From Burkholderiales bacterium (GTDB lineage: Bacteria; Pseudomonadota; Gammaproteobacteria; Burkholderiales; JACQAP01): a stretch of 64,000 nucleotides of DNA. The notes beneath the pieces were generated by a model that did no database searches, had not been told where the DNA came from, and saw only the letters and a program-made list of their open reading frames with translations. Shown here in pieces: positions 1,282 to 25,240 of this stretch. Numbering within the stretch: position 1 is the stretch's first letter; the number at the start of each line of letters is the position of its first letter. The position numbers and the translations under genes are program-made. Location: positions 5,952 through 69,951 of the forward strand of contig DASVNF010000100.1 of the NCBI GenBank assembly GCA_036384015.1, in the 5' to 3' direction.

Positions 1282-1917
1282 ATGACAGAAACGCGGCGCA
1301 TCGGGATGGCGGTGGTCTGGATGCTCGCCAGCGTGGCGGCCTGTCCGGCCGTTCTCGCCCAGCAACCCGGGCAGACGACCCGATTCGAGATCACGCCTTT
1401 CGCCGGTTACCAGAGCAGCGAGGAATTTTCCGACGAAGTCTCGGGGACGGAGCTTAAACTTGAGAGCACTGGCAACGCCGGGATCATCTTCAGCATGAAT
1501 CTGGCACAGGACACCCAACTCGAGTTCCTGTACAGCACGGCGACATCGTCGCTTGCGCCTAAGAGCGGCGGCCCCGCCCTCACCGACGTCAAGGTTGAAT
1601 ATCTGCATGTGGGGGCGGTTTACGTCTACAGCGGCGGTCGCGTGCGGCCGTTCTTCGGTGCCACCGGCGGCGCCAGCCGCTTTGCCCCGGACGCACCGGG
1701 ACTGGACAGCGATACCAACTTCTCCCTGGGCCTCGTCGGCGGCGTCAAGCTGTTCCTGACAGAAAATATCGGGCTGCGCGTCGAGGCGCGCGCTTTCGCC
1801 ACGCAGGTGGACAGCGACAGCGCGGCGTTCTGCAACAATGGCACCTGCAGGATTTTCTACGAGGGAGACTTTATCTGGCAGTACATGGCCAACGCCGGCA
1901 TCGTGATCGCTTTCTAG
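1282..1917 (+). CDS. Outer-membrane beta-barrel protein (OmpW/OmpA-like small barrel)
   Basis: ORF 1219..1917 trimmed to ATG 1282, which is preceded by AAGGAG. Signal peptide MAVVWMLASVAACPAVLAQQ. Alternating hydrophobic beta-strand pattern and a C-terminal aromatic end (IVIAF). Confidence 0.7.
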   Translation: MTETRRIGMAVVWMLASVAACPAVLAQQPGQTTRFEITPFAGYQSSEEFSDEVSGTELKLESTGNAGIIFSMNLAQDTQLEFLYSTATSSLAPKSGGPALTDVKVEYLHVGAVYVYSGGRVRPFFGATGGASRFAPDAPGLDSDTNFSLGLVGGVKLFLTENIGLRVEARAFATQVDSDSAAFCNNGTCRIFYEGDFIWQYMANAGIVIAF

Positions 1918-1977
1918 TGCGGAAAAAGCGGGGGCAGCCGTCCCGACGGACAATTCAAGAACTCTCAGGAGAATGGC

Positions 1978-2541
1978 ATGAAATACCGGAATAAACTCGC
2001 AATCATCATGGTTTCAACAGCGGTGTTTGCACTACCCGCCGCCCATGCCCAGGAAAAGGCGGGCGGGGTCGCCGCCGCGACAGCGGAAACCGTGGTAACG
2101 GTGGTGGAAGTCGACCGCGAAGCGCGGGTCGTTACCGTAATGGGCCCCGAGGGCGGTCTGACGACGATCAACGTCCCCCCTGAAGCGCAAAATCTCGACC
2201 AGGTAGTGCCAGGATCGCGCTTCAAGGTCACGTATCTCGCTTCCGTCGCACTGGCGCTGCGCAAAGGCAGCGGCGCGGCGAGTTCCAGCCAGGGCAGGAC
2301 CGTCCGCCTTGCACCGAAAGGCGATACGCCTGGCGGCGCGGTGGTCAGCGTGCGCGAAGTCAATGCCGTGGTCGAGAAAATCGATCGAGACACCCGCGTT
2401 CTGACGGTGCGCGGTCCCGAAGGAGGCCCACGCGAACTGCAGGTCGACGAGTCGGTCAAGGCTTTCGACCAGGTCAACGTCGGCGACACGATTACGGTCC
2501 AGTTTACCGAAGGCCTGGCGATGCGCATGATCAAGGAGTAA
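1978..2541 (+). CDS. Secreted hypothetical protein with an internal tandem domain duplication
   Basis: GGAG RBS. Signal peptide ending AAHAQE. Two homologous about 55-aa segments: VVEVDREARVVTVMGPEGG... and VVEKIDRDTRVLTVRGPEGG... Confidence 0.6.
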   Translation: MKYRNKLAIIMVSTAVFALPAAHAQEKAGGVAAATAETVVTVVEVDREARVVTVMGPEGGLTTINVPPEAQNLDQVVPGSRFKVTYLASVALALRKGSGAASSSQGRTVRLAPKGDTPGGAVVSVREVNAVVEKIDRDTRVLTVRGPEGGPRELQVDESVKAFDQVNVGDTITVQFTEGLAMRMIKE

Positions 2542-2646
2542 CGCCTGGCGCGCTGACTGGGGGTACCACAGCGGGCATCGGGCGGCCGCTGAACGCGCCG
2601 CCCGGTCCACTGATTTCAGGACGCCGGCATGTCATGGCCCGGCCAT

Positions 2647-2664
2647 ATTGGACTATGGTCCAAT
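2647..2664. promoter_or_regulatory. 18-bp palindrome ATTGGACTATGGTCCAAT (candidate operator, copy 2)
   Basis: Same 7-4-7 palindrome as at 1102. It lies 34 nt upstream of the CheY-like gene start at 2698 and is followed by TTTCCGG. Confidence 0.55.
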
Positions 2665-2697
2665 TTTCCGGAGGGCGCCGGACTGGTGCAATGAGCC

Positions 2698-3087
2698 ATG
2701 GCCTCACTTCTGGTCGCCGTGGTTGACGACGAAGAACCTGTTCGCAAGGCTCTCGGCCGCCTGCTGCGTGCCTCCGGTCTGAACGTGCACGCTTTTCCCT
2801 CGGGGCAGGCCTTCATCGACTCGATTGCCTCGGCCCGCCCCGATTGCCTCATCCTCGACCTGCACATGCCCGGACTGAACGGCCTGCAGGTACTCGAGCA
2901 TCTCAAGGCCTGCCGCACGCTTTTCCCCACCATCGTCATCACCGGGCATGACGAACCTGAAAACCAGACGCGCTGCCTGTCCGGAGGCGCGATGGCCTAC
3001 ATGCGCAAGCCGCTGGATGACCGGTTGCTGCTGCATGCCATCGACGAGGCGGTGAAAAATTCCGGCAGCGGGCACCCCCCCGCCTGA
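2698..3087 (+). CDS. Single-domain response regulator (CheY-like receiver only)
   Basis: 129 aa with receiver signatures VAVVDDE, LILDLHMPGLNGLQV and RKP. There is no output domain. Confidence 0.8.
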   Translation: MASLLVAVVDDEEPVRKALGRLLRASGLNVHAFPSGQAFIDSIASARPDCLILDLHMPGLNGLQVLEHLKACRTLFPTIVITGHDEPENQTRCLSGGAMAYMRKPLDDRLLLHAIDEAVKNSGSGHPPA

Positions 3088-3164
3088 GTAGGAATGGGAT
3101 AAGGAGCGGATCTCGTTCTCCGCGGCACAACGACTAACAACAACCAGCGAAAGATAAATAAAAA

Positions 3165-4031
3165 ATGACAAACACCCTTCTCCTGCTTTCGGCGCTCGGC
3201 ATCCTCGCAATGGCGACCGGCGTCTCCGCCGAACAGCAAGGCGATACGCTTGCGGCGATCAGGAACACGCAGTCCATCAGGCTCGGCTATCTCGACCAGT
3301 CCGTGCCGTTCTCCTTCGTGGACCAGAAGGGAAACCCGCCGCAGGGCTACTCGATTGAACTCTGCCTCAGGGTTGTCGCCGGCATCGAACAGCAGCTCGG
3401 GTTGCAGAAACTCAAGGTGCAATGGGTTCCCCTCACCATGGCGAATCGTTTCGACATGGTGGCGGACGGCAGCGTCGACCTCGAATGCGGCATATCGACC
3501 ATCACCCTGTCGCGCCAGCAGAAGGTGGCTTTCAGCCTGATGACCTGGATAGACGGCGGCAGCTTCGTCGTAAAAGCAGGACGGCCGCACGGCGGCCTGG
3601 GCGATCTCGCCGGCAAGAAAATCGCGGTCATCGCCGGCACCACCACCGAAAGCGCCCTGCGCGATGCGCTGAAGAAGGACTTCATCAAGGCGGACCTCGT
3701 CCTGGTCAAGGAACATCTCGAGGGCCTGGGCGCCTTGGACCAGGGCAGGGCCGACGCCTACGCGGCCGACCAGACGGTGCTGATCGGGCTGGGCCTCGCC
3801 GTCAAGGAGCAGTTGTCCCTGGCCCTCGCCGACCGCAACTTTTCCTTCGAGCCCTACGGGCTGACCCTGAGGCGAAACGACGCTGACTTCAAGCTGGCGG
3901 TCAACCAGGAACTGGCGCGCATCTACCGGACCGGCCAGATCGGCGCGATCTATGACCGCTGGTTCGGCAAGCTGGGCAAACCGTCGTCGATGCTCGCGGC
4001 GATGTTCGCGATCAATGGATTGCCTGAATGA
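3165..4031 (+). CDS. Periplasmic solute-binding protein, family 3 (amino-acid type), orphan
   Basis: Signal peptide ending SAEQQ. Strings IRLGY, PFSF, GYSIELC and VDLECGISTITLSR, with a C-terminal INGLPE. There is no adjacent ABC permease or ATPase gene. Confidence 0.8.
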   Translation: MTNTLLLLSALGILAMATGVSAEQQGDTLAAIRNTQSIRLGYLDQSVPFSFVDQKGNPPQGYSIELCLRVVAGIEQQLGLQKLKVQWVPLTMANRFDMVADGSVDLECGISTITLSRQQKVAFSLMTWIDGGSFVVKAGRPHGGLGDLAGKKIAVIAGTTTESALRDALKKDFIKADLVLVKEHLEGLGALDQGRADAYAADQTVLIGLGLAVKEQLSLALADRNFSFEPYGLTLRRNDADFKLAVNQELARIYRTGQIGAIYDRWFGKLGKPSSMLAAMFAINGLPE

Positions 4032-4306
4032 AAAGCGGCTTACATCGATGCCCCGCACATTGGACTGCGGGACTCCGCACATGCGACAGATGTTGTGTTG
4101 CCAACCGCCGCGCTTAATTTCAGCACTGCTCTCGTCGTACTGGGCGTGGTCTTTCTCATGGCAGGAAGCAGGACAAGTGGACCTATTGGGGAGCAAATAG
4201 AGCGGGCACCCGGTACCCCCCGCGACATGCTGCTTGAAGCTGTCGTCCTGTATGTGGGCGAAGCCTTGCGCCAGGCAGGCCAGCCCCGTGCAATGCGCAC
4301 TGGTGA

Positions 4307-4642
4307 TTACCTGCGGCGTCCTCCACCTCCGGCTCGCGCAGCAGGACGCGGCGCCGGCATGGGCCGCGACGTGGGCGGCTTCGCTATCGGCTGCGCGGGT
4401 TTCACCGGCCGGTCGACGTCCGGCCGATTCGCCGGCGGCGGGCCCACGACGACAGGGGGGCTGCCGTAGTAGCAGCACGGCCCCCAGCCCCATGAGTCAT
4501 AGTAGCCACCTCCCATGTACATGGATCCGTGCACTGATCCGGAACCGTTCGAAGCGCAGCCCGACGCGAAGATGGCGCCGCACAGCATCAACGCGTACGA
4601 CGAGTGACGCACGGGGTTGGACTTGCGGAAGGATTTTTTCAT
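4307..4642 (-). CDS. Small Gly/Pro-rich lipoprotein, hypothetical
   Basis: Lipobox-like AIFASGC after a basic N-terminus. Low-complexity Gly/Tyr/Pro-rich body. Its ATG overlaps the stop of the upstream VOC gene (ATGA). Confidence 0.5.
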   Translation of the reverse strand: MKKSFRKSNPVRHSSYALMLCGAIFASGCASNGSGSVHGSMYMGGGYYDSWGWGPCCYYGSPPVVVGPPPANRPDVDRPVKPAQPIAKPPTSRPMPAPRPAARAGGGGRRR

Positions 4643-5532
4643 TTCTGCCCCCCGTTCGCGTCATCGGCCCCGTCCTGCCAGTTGACGATGCCGAGCACGC
4701 CGCCGCGCGGGTCGGCGATCACCGCAAGATTTCCATCGAGCACGTCCCCGCGCGGCGGTACCAGCACACTGCCCCCGGCGGCGCTCACTTTGTCGAGCGT
4801 GGCGCGCACATCGTCGACCAGCACATACGGCAACCAACCCGGCTGCTGGACGACCTCGGGCTTCGGTACGATGCCGGCCCGTGCGTATCCTTCCGAGGAC
4901 AACACCACGCGCTTGATCGGTTCGCTTGCGCCGGGCGTCGCCCCGTAGCCGGCCAGGCCGCTATAGAACCTGGCGGCCCGCTCGGGCTCGCGCGCCAGCA
5001 GATCCACCCAGAAGAAATCCCCGGCGGCAACCGGCGTATCGGGCCGGTCGCCGCCTTCCGGCTTGAGCACGCCGAACACCGCCCCATCGGGATCGCGGAA
5101 CAGGGCATGGGTTCCCCTTCCCTTGACGGTGGCAGGCGGCACGAGGACGGTACCGCCTTGCTGCTTCACGTAGCGAGCCGCCTTGGCCGGGTCGTCCACC
5201 GAGATCAACGCCAGCCAGCGGGCGCTGCGCTGCGCGCCGGCCGGTGCGGGGCGTTGGAGAATGCCGCCGATGCGCGTGCCTTCGAGTTCTGCGAAGGTAT
5301 ACGACTCCGGTTTATCGCCCACAGTGGAAAACTTCCAGCCGAACACCTCGCCGTAGAACCGGCGCGCAGCGTCGAGATCGTCGGTGACGAGGTCGAACCA
5401 GGAAAATTTTCCGGGAAGATATTTTCCGCCCTGCTCCGCGCGGGCAGCCAGCGATGCTCCCGCCATGAGACCCAGCAATGCGAGCAGCAAGGCATTCCTT
5501 GCGGCGATCTTAACCATCCGTGAAAGATTCAT
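4639..5532 (-). CDS. Secreted VOC/glyoxalase-fold protein (two tandem glyoxalase-like domains)
   Basis: ORF 4639..5604 trimmed to ATG 5532, which begins the signal peptide MNLSRMVKIAARNALLLALLGLMAGASLAARA. The motif FSWFDL..DD...A..FY..VFGW occurs twice. Confidence 0.65.
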   Translation of the reverse strand: MNLSRMVKIAARNALLLALLGLMAGASLAARAEQGGKYLPGKFSWFDLVTDDLDAARRFYGEVFGWKFSTVGDKPESYTFAELEGTRIGGILQRPAPAGAQRSARWLALISVDDPAKAARYVKQQGGTVLVPPATVKGRGTHALFRDPDGAVFGVLKPEGGDRPDTPVAAGDFFWVDLLAREPERAARFYSGLAGYGATPGASEPIKRVVLSSEGYARAGIVPKPEVVQQPGWLPYVLVDDVRATLDKVSAAGGSVLVPPRGDVLDGNLAVIADPRGGVLGIVNWQDGADDANGGQK

Positions 5533-23456: not shown

Positions 23457-23625
23457 GGCCCGCCGGCATTTCGAGGAGAATACGCAAGGCGCAATCGAGG
23501 CCGGCAAGCTGGCCGGCTTCGTCGTGCTTCGGACAATCCGCTGACGGTCGACCGGTCGAGTCCACCGAGCTGAAAGTGCGCAAGGCGACCAGGAGAGGCC
23601 GGTCGATTTACCGTGAGGCTAATTC
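23455..23625 (+). pseudogene. Remnant of the 3' end of an amidohydrolase-family gene (frameshifted fragment)
   Basis: Across three frames the DNA reads ...FEENTQGAIEAGKLAGFVVL / DNPLTVD / ELKVRKATRRGRSIYRE. This resembles the usual amidohydrolase C-terminus (GS.E.GK.AD.VVLD.NPL.V....IK...V..T.V.G..VY). No N-terminal part is present. Confidence 0.35.
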
Positions 23626-23645
23626 CCGGGCCGCGCCCCGCCGCC

Positions 23646-24017
23646 TCAGAGAAATCGGTTCGGCTGCAGGAACATTCCCAGCAAGAGCGCACCCTCAGGC
23701 GCGGTCGCGACGTGCCTGCTGCCCGCCGGCCGCCAGACATACTCGCCGGCTTTGACCTCGCCCTCCCCGTCCACCAGCCTGCCTTCCAGGACGTAGGTCT
23801 GCTCTACGCCGGCGTGCTCGTGCAACGGCAGCACGGCACCCGGCGCCATGCGGGTGAGGCTGGTCATCAGTCCGGTCTCCTTGTCCTCCAGCAACACCTT
23901 GATCTCCACGCCGGAAAATGCAGTCTTGCGCCAGGACAGGTCCTGCATTTTCACGTAACGCGACGACAGCGGCTTCAGTTCGCCTTCGGGTTTCCAGTCG
24001 GGTGTATGTGCGGTCAC
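23646..24017 (-). CDS. Cupin-domain protein (ChrR-like cupin)
   Basis: ORF 23646..24218 trimmed to the in-frame GTG 24017, which is preceded by GGAGGG. Cupin motifs: VLPLHEHAGVEQTYVLEG and GEYVWRPAGSRH. The longer ORF would translate the 7-bp repeat. Confidence 0.65.
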   Translation of the reverse strand: MTAHTPDWKPEGELKPLSSRYVKMQDLSWRKTAFSGVEIKVLLEDKETGLMTSLTRMAPGAVLPLHEHAGVEQTYVLEGRLVDGEGEVKAGEYVWRPAGSRHVATAPEGALLLGMFLQPNRFL

Positions 24018-24033
24018 GTTCCCTCCAAATGAC

Positions 24034-24151
24034 GTGCTGAGTGCTGAGTGCTGAGTGCTGAGTGCTGAGTGCTGAGTGCTGAGTGCTGAGTGCTGAGTGC
24101 TGAGTGCTGAGTGCTGAGTGCTGAGTGCTGAGTGCTGAGTGCTGAGTGCTG
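24034..24151. repeat. Heptanucleotide tandem repeat (GTGCTGA) x16 perfect copies plus a 6-nt partial 17th
   Basis: Counted directly: units begin at 24034+7k for k=0..15, and the 17th unit is GTGCTG followed by c. The array ends 16 nt upstream of the cupin GTG start and RBS. Confidence 0.95.
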
Positions 24152-24205
24152 CAATTGGACGTTCCTGCGTATTCGCGGTTCTCCGATCTCGTTGTATTCC
24201 TCTCG

Positions 24206-24298
24206 CAGCACACAGCACTCGGTATGCAGCACGCCTTCCTTCTCAGTCACGCGTCACGCTTCTCCGTTCCCGTCACGCTTTTCTGTCACCCGCCACGC
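24206..24298. repeat. Degenerate inverted copies of the heptamer (CAGCAC motifs, 24206-24232) followed by five direct GTCACGC-like heptamers (24246-24298)
   Basis: CAGCACACAGCACTCGGTATGCAGCAC is complementary to (GTGCTGA)n. GTCACGC occurs at 24246, 24253 and 24272, GTCACCC at 24285 and GCCACGC at 24292. Confidence 0.8.
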
Positions 24299-24304
24299 GG
24301 CATT

Positions 24305-25240
24305 TCAGACCCGCGTTACCAGCGGCTTGCCGGCGAAGAACGCCGCCAGGTTGTCCACCACCAGTTGCCCCATTGCCGCGCGCGTCTGGTGCGTTCCGCT
24401 GGAAACATGCGGCTGCAGCACCACGTTGTCGAGCGTGAAGAGGGCTTCCGGCACTTTGGGCTCGGCGACGAACACGTCCAGTCCGGCGCCGGCCAGCTTG
24501 CCGCTGACCAGCGCCTCGACGAGAGCGGGCTCGTCCACTGTCGAACCGCGCGACACGTTGATCAGATAGCGCTTGCTTCCCAATGCTTCGATGACCTCGC
24601 GGCTGACGATGCGCTCGGTTTCCTTGCCGCCGGGGCAGGACACCATCAGGATATCCACTGCGCGGGCCAGATCCACCGGCCGGTCGTAAAAGTCATAGGC
24701 AACGCCTGCCTGCTTGTGGCGGCCGTGATAGGAGATTTTCATGCCGAATGCTTCGGCGCGCCGGGCAATGGCCTTGCCGATCGCGCCGAGGCCGATGATG
24801 CCGAGGCGACTGCCCGACACCTTGTCGGTCAGCGGGGCGCCGCCCTTCAGCCAGTTGCCCGCCCGCACGAAATTATCGTTGAACACCGTGCGCCGCACCG
24901 TGCTGAGCAGCAGCGCCAGCGCATTGTCCGCGACGCATTCGGTCAGCACGTCAGGCGTGTTGGTCACGGCGATGCCGAGCTCGCGCGCCGCCGGCACGTC
25001 GATGCCGTCCACGCCGACACCGAAGCAGGAGATGATTTTGAGTTTCGGAAAGCGCTTCATCAGCGCCACCGTCATGCCTTCGTGGCCCGCCGTCGCCGCG
25101 GCGGTGATGCGGCCGGCGACGGATGCGACGAACGCGTCCTTTTCCGCGGCCTCGTAGTAGCGGTGCACGGTGTAAGCGGCATCGAGTTGTTTCATGGTCG
25201 CGGGAAACAACGGGCAGATCAGCAGCAGGTCGGGTTTCAT
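24305..25240 (-). CDS. D-isomer-specific 2-hydroxyacid dehydrogenase (glyoxylate/hydroxypyruvate reductase-like)
   Basis: ORF 24305..25321 trimmed to ATG 25240. NAD-binding GIIGLGAIGKAIARR. Catalytic region INVSRGSTVDE...LDVF..EP and QPHVSSGT. Confidence 0.8.
   Translation of the reverse strand: MKPDLLLICPLFPATMKQLDAAYTVHRYYEAAEKDAFVASVAGRITAAATAGHEGMTVALMKRFPKLKIISCFGVGVDGIDVPAARELGIAVTNTPDVLTECVADNALALLLSTVRRTVFNDNFVRAGNWLKGGAPLTDKVSGSRLGIIGLGAIGKAIARRAEAFGMKISYHGRHKQAGVAYDFYDRPVDLARAVDILMVSCPGGKETERIVSREVIEALGSKRYLINVSRGSTVDEPALVEALVSGKLAGAGLDVFVAEPKVPEALFTLDNVVLQPHVSSGTHQTRAAMGQLVVDNLAAFFAGKPLVTRV

Follow-up and report, generated by a model that had tools for sequence, protein, structure and literature searches.

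A hypermutable heptanucleotide array upstream of a cupin gene in an uncultured soil Burkholderiales, probably the over-expanded arm of an intergenic hairpin

We analysed a 64,000-nucleotide stretch, hereafter the window, of contig DASVNF010000100.1 from a Burkholderiales metagenome-assembled genome (MAG; GCA_036384015.1), in which a perfect array of the heptanucleotide GTGCTGA fills part of the gap between a dehydrogenase gene and a small cupin gene. The explanation that accounts best for our observations, and that we regard as likely, is that the array is a hypermutable variable number tandem repeat (VNTR) in an untranslated, transcribed gap, where it would form the over-expanded arm of a hairpin and act as a deletion hot spot, any effect on expression being graded.

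Tandem Repeats Finder placed the array at window positions 24034-24151 with a period of 7, 16.9 copies of the unit GTGCTGA, 100% matches, 0 indels and a score of 236, and a regular-expression count gave a length of 118 nt, or 16.86 copies. An earlier inspection of these letters, the sequence-only reading, had described a perfect array free of interruptions, and this description holds. On the minus strand, which is the sense strand of the cupin gene, the array reads CAGCAC(TCAGCAC)16, corresponding to (GTGCTGA)16.9 on the plus strand. With as many as 2 mismatches allowed, the two-unit 14-mer GTGCTGAGTGCTGA is found 17 times, where dinucleotide shuffles predict 0.56, and no second perfect array (at least 2.5 copies, period 5-12 nt) comes near this length within the 64 kb. 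With the dehydrogenase stop at 24305 and the cupin start at 24017, its location is intergenic. On the minus strand (TCAGCAC)n is followed by GTCATTTGGAGGGAACGTG, and the segment at 24015-24033 comprises the Shine-Dalgarno (SD) sequence GGAGGG (24026-24021) and the GTG start codon (24017-24015) of the cupin gene, a string found identically in a related contig, L001. The array ends 7 nt from the SD and exactly 16 nt from the start codon, the spacing that the sequence-only reading had given.

The array recurs in three further independent assemblies from a lineage about 95-97% identical in DNA. Contig L195 (Logan, SRR10695391) matches the window at 100% identity for 4119 nt and reproduces the distal junction of the array, ending 30 nt into it, as expected for k = 31. 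L001 (Logan, SRR29333055; 95.1% nucleotide identity, cupin 96% identical in amino acids) starts inside the array, and its two units nearest the gene both read GCAGCAC, indicating that a variant unit was duplicated by slippage. L192 (Joint Genome Institute (JGI) 3300066520, Ga0606624_0018518; 96.6% and 95.2% nucleotide identity on the two sides) carries a perfect array of 12.29 copies with the same inverted partner block and spacer as the window. A further contig, L194 (Logan, SRR29333087), stops before the array. The sequence-only reading had proposed comparing copy number among relatives: it differs, with 16.86 copies in the window and 12.29 in L192, between populations about 96% identical. 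In the unique intergenic DNA beside the array, 5 of 85 positions (about 6%) differ between the window and L192, whereas both arrays are perfect. Moreover, the proportion of synonymous differences (pS) of the cupin, compared between the window and L001, is 0.175, a divergence at which 118 bases evolving neutrally should carry about 10 substitutions; the array has none. This purity despite the divergence of the flanks implies that expansion and contraction turn the array over much faster than point mutation. We conclude that the array is a hypermutable, slippage-prone simple sequence repeat (SSR); its polymorphism and homogenisation are observed, and slippage is the mechanism that we infer. The proneness to slippage claimed in the sequence-only reading is thus borne out by the two copy numbers, the duplicated GCAGCAC unit and the purity of the repeat. 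Relatives with 93% cupin identity (L002-L006) have no array at this place, only GTGAC-type 20-nt repeats. Comparison of the window with L002 revealed no clean insertion boundary or target-site duplication; where L002 has about 17 nt, the window has about 200 nt.

The L192 allele has, in addition, lost the cupin. Its positions 1-1707 align to window 25794-24066 and its positions 1704-5490 to window 23457-19670, and the missing segment (window 23457-24033, 577 bp) holds the cupin gene, its SD and the downstream spacer. The array of L192 (L192:1622-1707) abuts TCATCGCATCC. This is, in reverse complement, the 3' end with stop codon of a convergent gene for 297 amino acids that runs from window 23456 downward, and the junction between TCAGCAC and TCATCGCATCC displays a TCA microhomology at the array end. 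Since De Bruijn assemblers cannot invent junction k-mers, the deletion should represent a real allele. Its position indicates that the array is also a breakpoint for illegitimate recombination, and its existence that the cupin is dispensable in at least one population. A search of JGI metagenome contigs with the array-gene junction pattern CAGCACGTCATTTGGAGGGAAC gave no match; L192 lacks this pattern because its cupin is deleted, and was reached through the dehydrogenase cluster. Copy-number drift and deletion of the adjacent gene are the documented consequences of the array.

The cupin gene (23646-24017, minus strand) encodes a stand-alone Cupin_7 protein of 123 amino acids (ChrR-like cupin; Pfam E = 7.8e-24), 100% identical to HEX7811671.1, a third-party entry labelled 'MAG TPA Burkholderiales bacterium'. 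Its upstream partner (24305-25240, minus strand) was identified with Pfam as a D-2-hydroxyacid dehydrogenase of 311 amino acids and is 100% identical to the 311-residue homolog P0121. The gene order DUF1254/DUF1214, Omp85, dehydrogenase, cupin is kept in relatives, and dehydrogenase-cupin synteny was seen across L002-L004 and L130-L180. Across 19 syntenic loci, the gap between the two genes measures 22, 22, 24, 25, 80, 85, 111, 144, 228, 233, 241 and 241 nt in the shortest 12 and 252, 252, 265, 271, 287 (the window), 329 and 334 nt in the longest 7. Because gaps of 22-25 nt are too small for a promoter, the dehydrogenase and the cupin are probably a conserved, co-transcribed pair, most simply an operon. 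A scan of 23500-24500 detected no sigma-70-like promoter or intrinsic terminator, and no Rfam family matched in the same interval. The unit TCAGCAC contains nothing like a -10 element, and no more than 16 nt remain from array to start codon; any transcript encoding the cupin must therefore, on this evidence, include the array, which would then be part of an intercistronic leader RNA. A role as promoter spacer was considered and rejected: the array is 118 nt long, has no promoter-like site, and corresponds to gaps of 22-25 nt in orthologous loci. The promoter-to-RBS spacing (RBS, ribosome-binding site) that the sequence-only reading expected copy number to alter finds no promoter in 23500-24500, and the short gaps in relatives point to co-transcription instead. 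Between the window and L001 the ratio of nonsynonymous to synonymous differences (pN/pS) of the cupin is 0.10, a sign of purifying selection, indicating that where the gene is present the array does not silence it. The cupin start codon is GTG in both array-bearing alleles (window 24015-24017; L001:54-56) and ATG in array-less relatives (L002:3001-3003).

The array is predicted to fold back on a degenerate inverted partner. Repeat search and folding identified this block at 24198-24232 on the minus strand, with the sense sequence GUGCUGC-AUACCGA-GUGCUGU-GUGCUGC, as the 5' arm of a hairpin of which the array would supply the 3' arm plus about 13 unpaired units. Between them lies a unique spacer (24152-24197, minus strand), the loop, which is 94% identical in L192 and missing from relatives at 93% cupin identity. 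In the sense RNA the order is dehydrogenase stop, three GTGAC repeats, partner block, spacer (within a 54-nt hairpin loop), (UCAGCAC)17, 7 nt and SD. The inverted copies at 24206-24232 pointed out in the sequence-only reading are real: the arms span 27-35 nt, are 77-82% complementary, and the partner block is conserved in L192 and L195. In both minimum free energy and centroid structures the block pairs with the first four array units, and the local hairpin, at -48.2 kcal/mol, folds better than chance (z = -4.0; 0 of 200 shuffles fold as well). In folding models with 0-30 array units, the pairing between block and array saturates at about 23 bp from n = 5, and the predicted probability that the SD is unpaired stays flat at 0.31 from n = 12 to 30. 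These models suggest that at present lengths, above about 5-12 copies, copy number alters neither hairpin size nor access to the RBS. Hence the hairpin foreseen in the sequence-only reading is predicted, but its supposed growth with copy number is not seen beyond n = 5. Copy number would instead lengthen or shorten a stretch of unpaired RNA, about 90 nt at present, before the RBS. On its sense strand the array has a C:G ratio of 34:11 per 78 nt (about 3:1), which ranks among the three most skewed 78-nt intervals of the 64 kb (top 0.05%). Unpaired RNA that is rich in C and poor in G resembles a Rho utilisation site, and would hypothetically also be accessible to S1 or nucleases.

The same repeat unit is widespread. 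A scan for (TCAGCAC)3 in one genome per GTDB species returned at least 120 loci, and the matches listed span Nostocales, Acidobacteriota, Chloroflexota, Longimicrobium, Chlorobiaceae, Comamonadaceae, Treponema, Pantoea and others. Among these matches, the copy number of 150 arrays of the unit reaches 15.6 at most, with a median of 4.4, and the window array is longer than all of them. Perfect arrays of period 7 number 242 in the listed loci, with 62 different units, against 2, 8, 9 and 1 for periods 5, 6, 8 and 9. Where two opposite arrays lie 20-200 nt apart, (GTGCTGA)n comes first and (TCAGCAC)m follows after the spacer in 12 of 12 listed loci, and also in the window. These paired loci (L031, L035, L040, L042, L051, L063, L081, L082, L094, L102, L123 and L128) come from Acidobacteriota, Cyanobacteria, Chlorobiaceae and others; in them the strand with a TGA in every frame faces outward on both sides, and the flanks often extend the palindrome. 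Spacers of paired arrays in other phyla share no sequence, and we rejected a conventional mobile element with conserved cargo on the grounds that spacers are unrelated between phyla. A survey of orientation and distance of the 150 arrays relative to crude open reading frame (ORF) calls gave mixed contexts and is confounded: the stops that GTGCTGA carries in all frames, and their absence from TCAGCAC, pull the ends and starts of ORFs towards the arrays. In a Comamonadaceae MAG (PCUV01000060.1; L013:3156-3212), a sense (TCAGCAC)8 lies between co-directional genes, 2 nt before a candidate ATG that has no obvious SD.

Heptameric repeats form a known class, the long simple sequence repeats (LSSRs). 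As far as Mrazek 2007 is summarised in PMC4679880, heptamers are in excess in many genomes, with Burkholderia among the richest genera. In Xanthomonas, GGGAATC arrays comprise 2-26 units, most often four; there are 70-75 'convergent' inverted pairs, and array lengths vary from species to species (PMC4692102; Rehm et al.). Our array shares with heptameric LSSRs (PMC4679880, PMC4692102; also the short tandemly repeated repetitive sequences, STRR, and GGGGAYT of Nostocales) the period of 7 and the intergenic site, and the class likewise has a modal size of about 4 units, rarely reaches 14-26 units in perfect arrays, often forms convergent inverted pairs and varies in length from one relative to another. 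The features that define an LSSR, namely a perfect head-to-tail repeat, an intergenic location, length variation and an inverted partner, are all found here. By contrast with typical LSSRs, the unit GTGCTGA/TCAGCAC is not G-rich and has no G-quadruplex potential, and there is a single such array in 64 kb; at 16.9 copies it also exceeds all 150 sampled arrays and sets a 17-unit arm against 4 degenerate units. We conclude that the array is a new, unusually long member of this class.

Two other families of intergenic repeats invite comparison. The REP and BIME hairpins (repetitive extragenic palindromes and bacterial interspersed mosaic elements) of enterobacterial operons are non-coding, lie between co-transcribed genes and are variably present, and could alter the relative expression of cistrons, including by Rho-dependent attenuation. 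Unlike these, the window element has no dispersed conserved consensus, its arms being locus-specific short tandem repeats. The TAACTGA repeats of marine Beggiatoaceae, Cyanobacteria and Bacteroidetes (PMC4679880) are also heptamers that end in CTGA, occur across phyla, lie within a few nucleotides of start codons and are suspected of a post-transcriptional role. However, those repeats have a stop in every frame and replace the RBS, whereas the sense TCAGCAC of the window is open and is followed by a canonical GGAGGG SD, and the BOGUAY genome holds 169 sets against one in the window.

Taken together, these data suggest a model in which the array is the 3' arm, greatly over-expanded, of a hairpin built from inverted heptamer arrays: (GUGCUGN)4, a 54-nt loop and (UCAGCAC)17. 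This design recurs with the same unit and polarity in many phyla, usually with about four units per arm. The array would grow, shrink and homogenise by replication slippage, and would be a hot spot for illegitimate recombination, one population having apparently lost the cupin by a deletion starting there. Any effect on cupin expression would be exerted through the mRNA leader and would be graded, as opposed to an on/off frame switch: Rho could plausibly load on the unpaired C-rich tract of about 90 nt, which nucleases or S1 might also target, and the hairpin is a plausible target of RNase III.

Several observations weigh against this model. The fold of the whole intergenic region is no more stable than that of shuffles (z = 0.28). 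Co-transcription is derived from synteny and from the short gaps of relatives, not from the window genome itself. With a pN/pS of 0.10 for the cupin, the array evidently does not abolish expression. Copy number per sample comes from short-read assemblies, and there are two full-length copy numbers in total, one of them from the cupin-less allele. Finally, contig L136 (JGI Ga0315912_10059518; cupin 84% identical) carries an independent perfect array at the same position, (CACTAGC)13.4 at L136:1876-1969, ending 21 nt before the cupin ATG; its unit has the same sense-strand base composition as TCAGCAC, C3 A2 T1 G1. Selection could therefore favour long C/A-rich arrays before the cupin, and this recurrence is the main observation left unexplained by a purely neutral view.

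Of the alternatives, the one that fares best, though we consider it unlikely, is a true contingency locus, in which selection keeps a long pure array and reversible copy-number change switches or tunes the cupin within clonal populations, through a hairpin and RNase III as in hmw1A. In Haemophilus influenzae, the (ATCTTTC)n of the hmw1A 5' untranslated region makes up one side of a hairpin that RNase III cuts, and longer repeats go with lower expression (PMC12721329). The hmw1A/hmw2A element and the window have in common a heptanucleotide SSR in the leader (for the window a putative one, judged by position), repeats that make up one arm of a long hairpin (predicted for the window), and more than 10 units. 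Our array is also pure and polymorphic, it lies 7 nt upstream of the SD, its repeats take part in a significant predicted hairpin as in hmw (PMC12721329), it has persisted across a split with a pS of 0.175, and L136 has an independent heptamer array at the same position. However, about 10 repeats pair in hmw and about 4 here, and the hairpin modelled here does not scale with copy number, its predicted size and SD accessibility being constant above about 5-12 units. For hmw, experiments have established the fall in expression as copies are added as well as the RNase III dependence. The genes differ as well, a surface adhesin of a host-adapted pathogen there and a cytoplasmic cupin of a soil bacterium here. 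By its Pfam class the cupin is a small cytoplasmic protein, and not a surface, restriction-modification, host-interaction or phage-interaction gene; such a cupin, under purifying selection, is not a typical contingency gene. Among the hallmarks of contingency loci we found a hypermutable gene-linked SSR, and neither an in-frame SSR, nor an SSR with promoter geometry, nor a surface, restriction-modification or interaction gene. Furthermore, arrays of this unit are common in intergenic DNA of many phyla and in every gene context, relatives manage without any array, and one population (L192) deleted the cupin.

A related proposal, which we put forward as speculative, is that unpaired (UCAGCAC)n is an entry site for Rho, RNase or S1 with a length set by slippage, so that operon polarity would be graded, heritable and reversible, as in a contingency rheostat acting on a metabolic gene of a free-living soil bacterium. 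This would fit the independent (CACTAGC)13 of L136, with its identical base composition and position. If it were so, the hairpins of fixed polarity found across phyla might constitute an unrecognised class of structured intergenic elements with expandable arms.

It is improbable, in our estimate, that an RNA- or DNA-binding protein (such as S1, a Csp-like protein or CsrA) uses the array as a multivalent platform. The same heptamer does recur across phyla with fixed polarity, here directly upstream of an RBS and in L013 as a sense (TCAGCAC)8 placed 2 nt before a candidate ATG, and there is a precedent in the hypothesis advanced for the Beggiatoaceae TAACTGA repeats (PMC4679880). Against it, the 64 kb hold a single array of the unit, other loci of the lineage use different units, and the survey of orientation and context is confounded and mixed. 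We know of no binding protein for this repeat.

Very improbable is a translated array, read either as a (STQHSAL)n extension of the cupin from GTG 24218 or as an upstream ORF coupled to the cupin from GTG 24250, with 7-nt steps giving three expression states. The ORF 23646-24218 does run through the array in frame with the cupin (190 amino acids), as the sequence-only reading had noted in proposing a start at GTG 24218. Because the array sense strand TCAGCAC is open in all three frames, such an in-frame ORF is a one-in-three accident. No SD was found before GTG 24218, and the lengths of homologs speak against this start: 108 of the 120 best cupin homologs have exactly 123 amino acids, the longest has 153 and none is near 190. 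Array-less relatives have the same M(A/T)AHTPDW N-terminus behind their own GGAGG-type SD. Homolog length, N-terminus and SD together confirm the RBS and GTG start that the sequence-only reading had also assigned. In a second frame, an ORF of 78 codons (24014-24250, minus strand) crosses the array and ends in a TGA that overlaps the cupin GTG (GTGA), a geometry suited to translational coupling; its GTG 24250 is preceded by a GGAG at 11 nt, a distance that counts against it, and we regard it as a curiosity without support for translation. The upstream segment is, besides, missing from relatives at 93% identity, the many GTG codons here merely reflect the GTGCTG units of the partner block, and L192 keeps the array without any ORF downstream. 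Judged by these comparisons, the array is not translated. A frame-based on/off switch was thus rejected, given the 108 of 120 homologs with 123 amino acids and a start and SD that array-less relatives share. The in-frame rule of the sequence-only reading, one copy number in three, therefore does not hold for the cupin.

Least credible of all is an assembly artefact, a repeat collapsed or invented in a short-read MAG: the source is indeed a third-party MAG and Logan contigs (k = 31) break inside the array, but both junctions and the repeat itself turn up, independently and with differences specific to each lineage, in SRR10695391, SRR29333055 and JGI 3300066520, and 118 nt is below the largest k-mer of the usual assemblers.

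The array is not the only repeat in this gap. Three repeats of about 20 nt, GCGTGACGnGTGAC, follow the dehydrogenase stop codon (24239-24298, minus strand; Tandem Repeats Finder period 20, 3.0 copies) and form a second small VNTR. They are also present in L002-L006 (93% identity) and are polymorphic, with three units in the window and two in L192 (L192:1510-1535). In other relatives the gap between dehydrogenase and cupin houses a CACGAAG/CTTCGTG hairpin family (L007, L134, L135, L140, L142, L144, L148, L149 and L154), exemplified in L135 by CTCACCACGAAGGCACGAAGGACACGAAG ... CTTCGTGTCCTTCGTGCCTTCGTGGTGAG. These CACGAAG(N)/CTTCGTG elements, of about 150-250 nt with terminal inverted arrays and variable centres, resemble MITEs (miniature transposable elements with inverted repeats) or REP doublets forming hairpins (REPINs), and could not be placed in a known family. 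Still other hairpins occupy the gap elsewhere: GTGACG/CGTCAC in L130, a GGGAGAG type in L009, L141 and L193, and a plain 24-nt inverted repeat in L137. As far as these loci indicate, the dehydrogenase-cupin gap is a hot spot for repeat-armed hairpin elements. The window holds at least five more intergenic hairpins whose arms are locus-specific tandem repeats of 7-10 nt, at 56086-56112/56216-56242, 63286-63320/63342-63368, 53865-53882/53925-53942, 59967-59982/60013-60028 and 52458-52520/52597-52659; the arm units are CGCAAAGG/CCTTTGCG, CGTGAATGN/ACGACATTC, GTGAATGA/CACTCATT, GTGAYTG/ACCAATC and of the CTTCGTGTTC type. Repeat-armed intergenic hairpins thus appear to be a genome-wide habit of this lineage.

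In conclusion, the array is a documented heptameric VNTR that is homogenised faster than point mutation and seeds gene deletion. It could be used as a strain marker, and it calls for caution in the assembly and annotation of MAGs, as an ORF caller can read straight through it. If copy number did tune the cupin, SSR contingency regulation, known from host-adapted pathogens, would then also cover a metabolic operon in an uncultured soil Burkholderiales, and the lineage would offer a natural allelic series of 0, about 12 and about 17 units together with a deletion allele.

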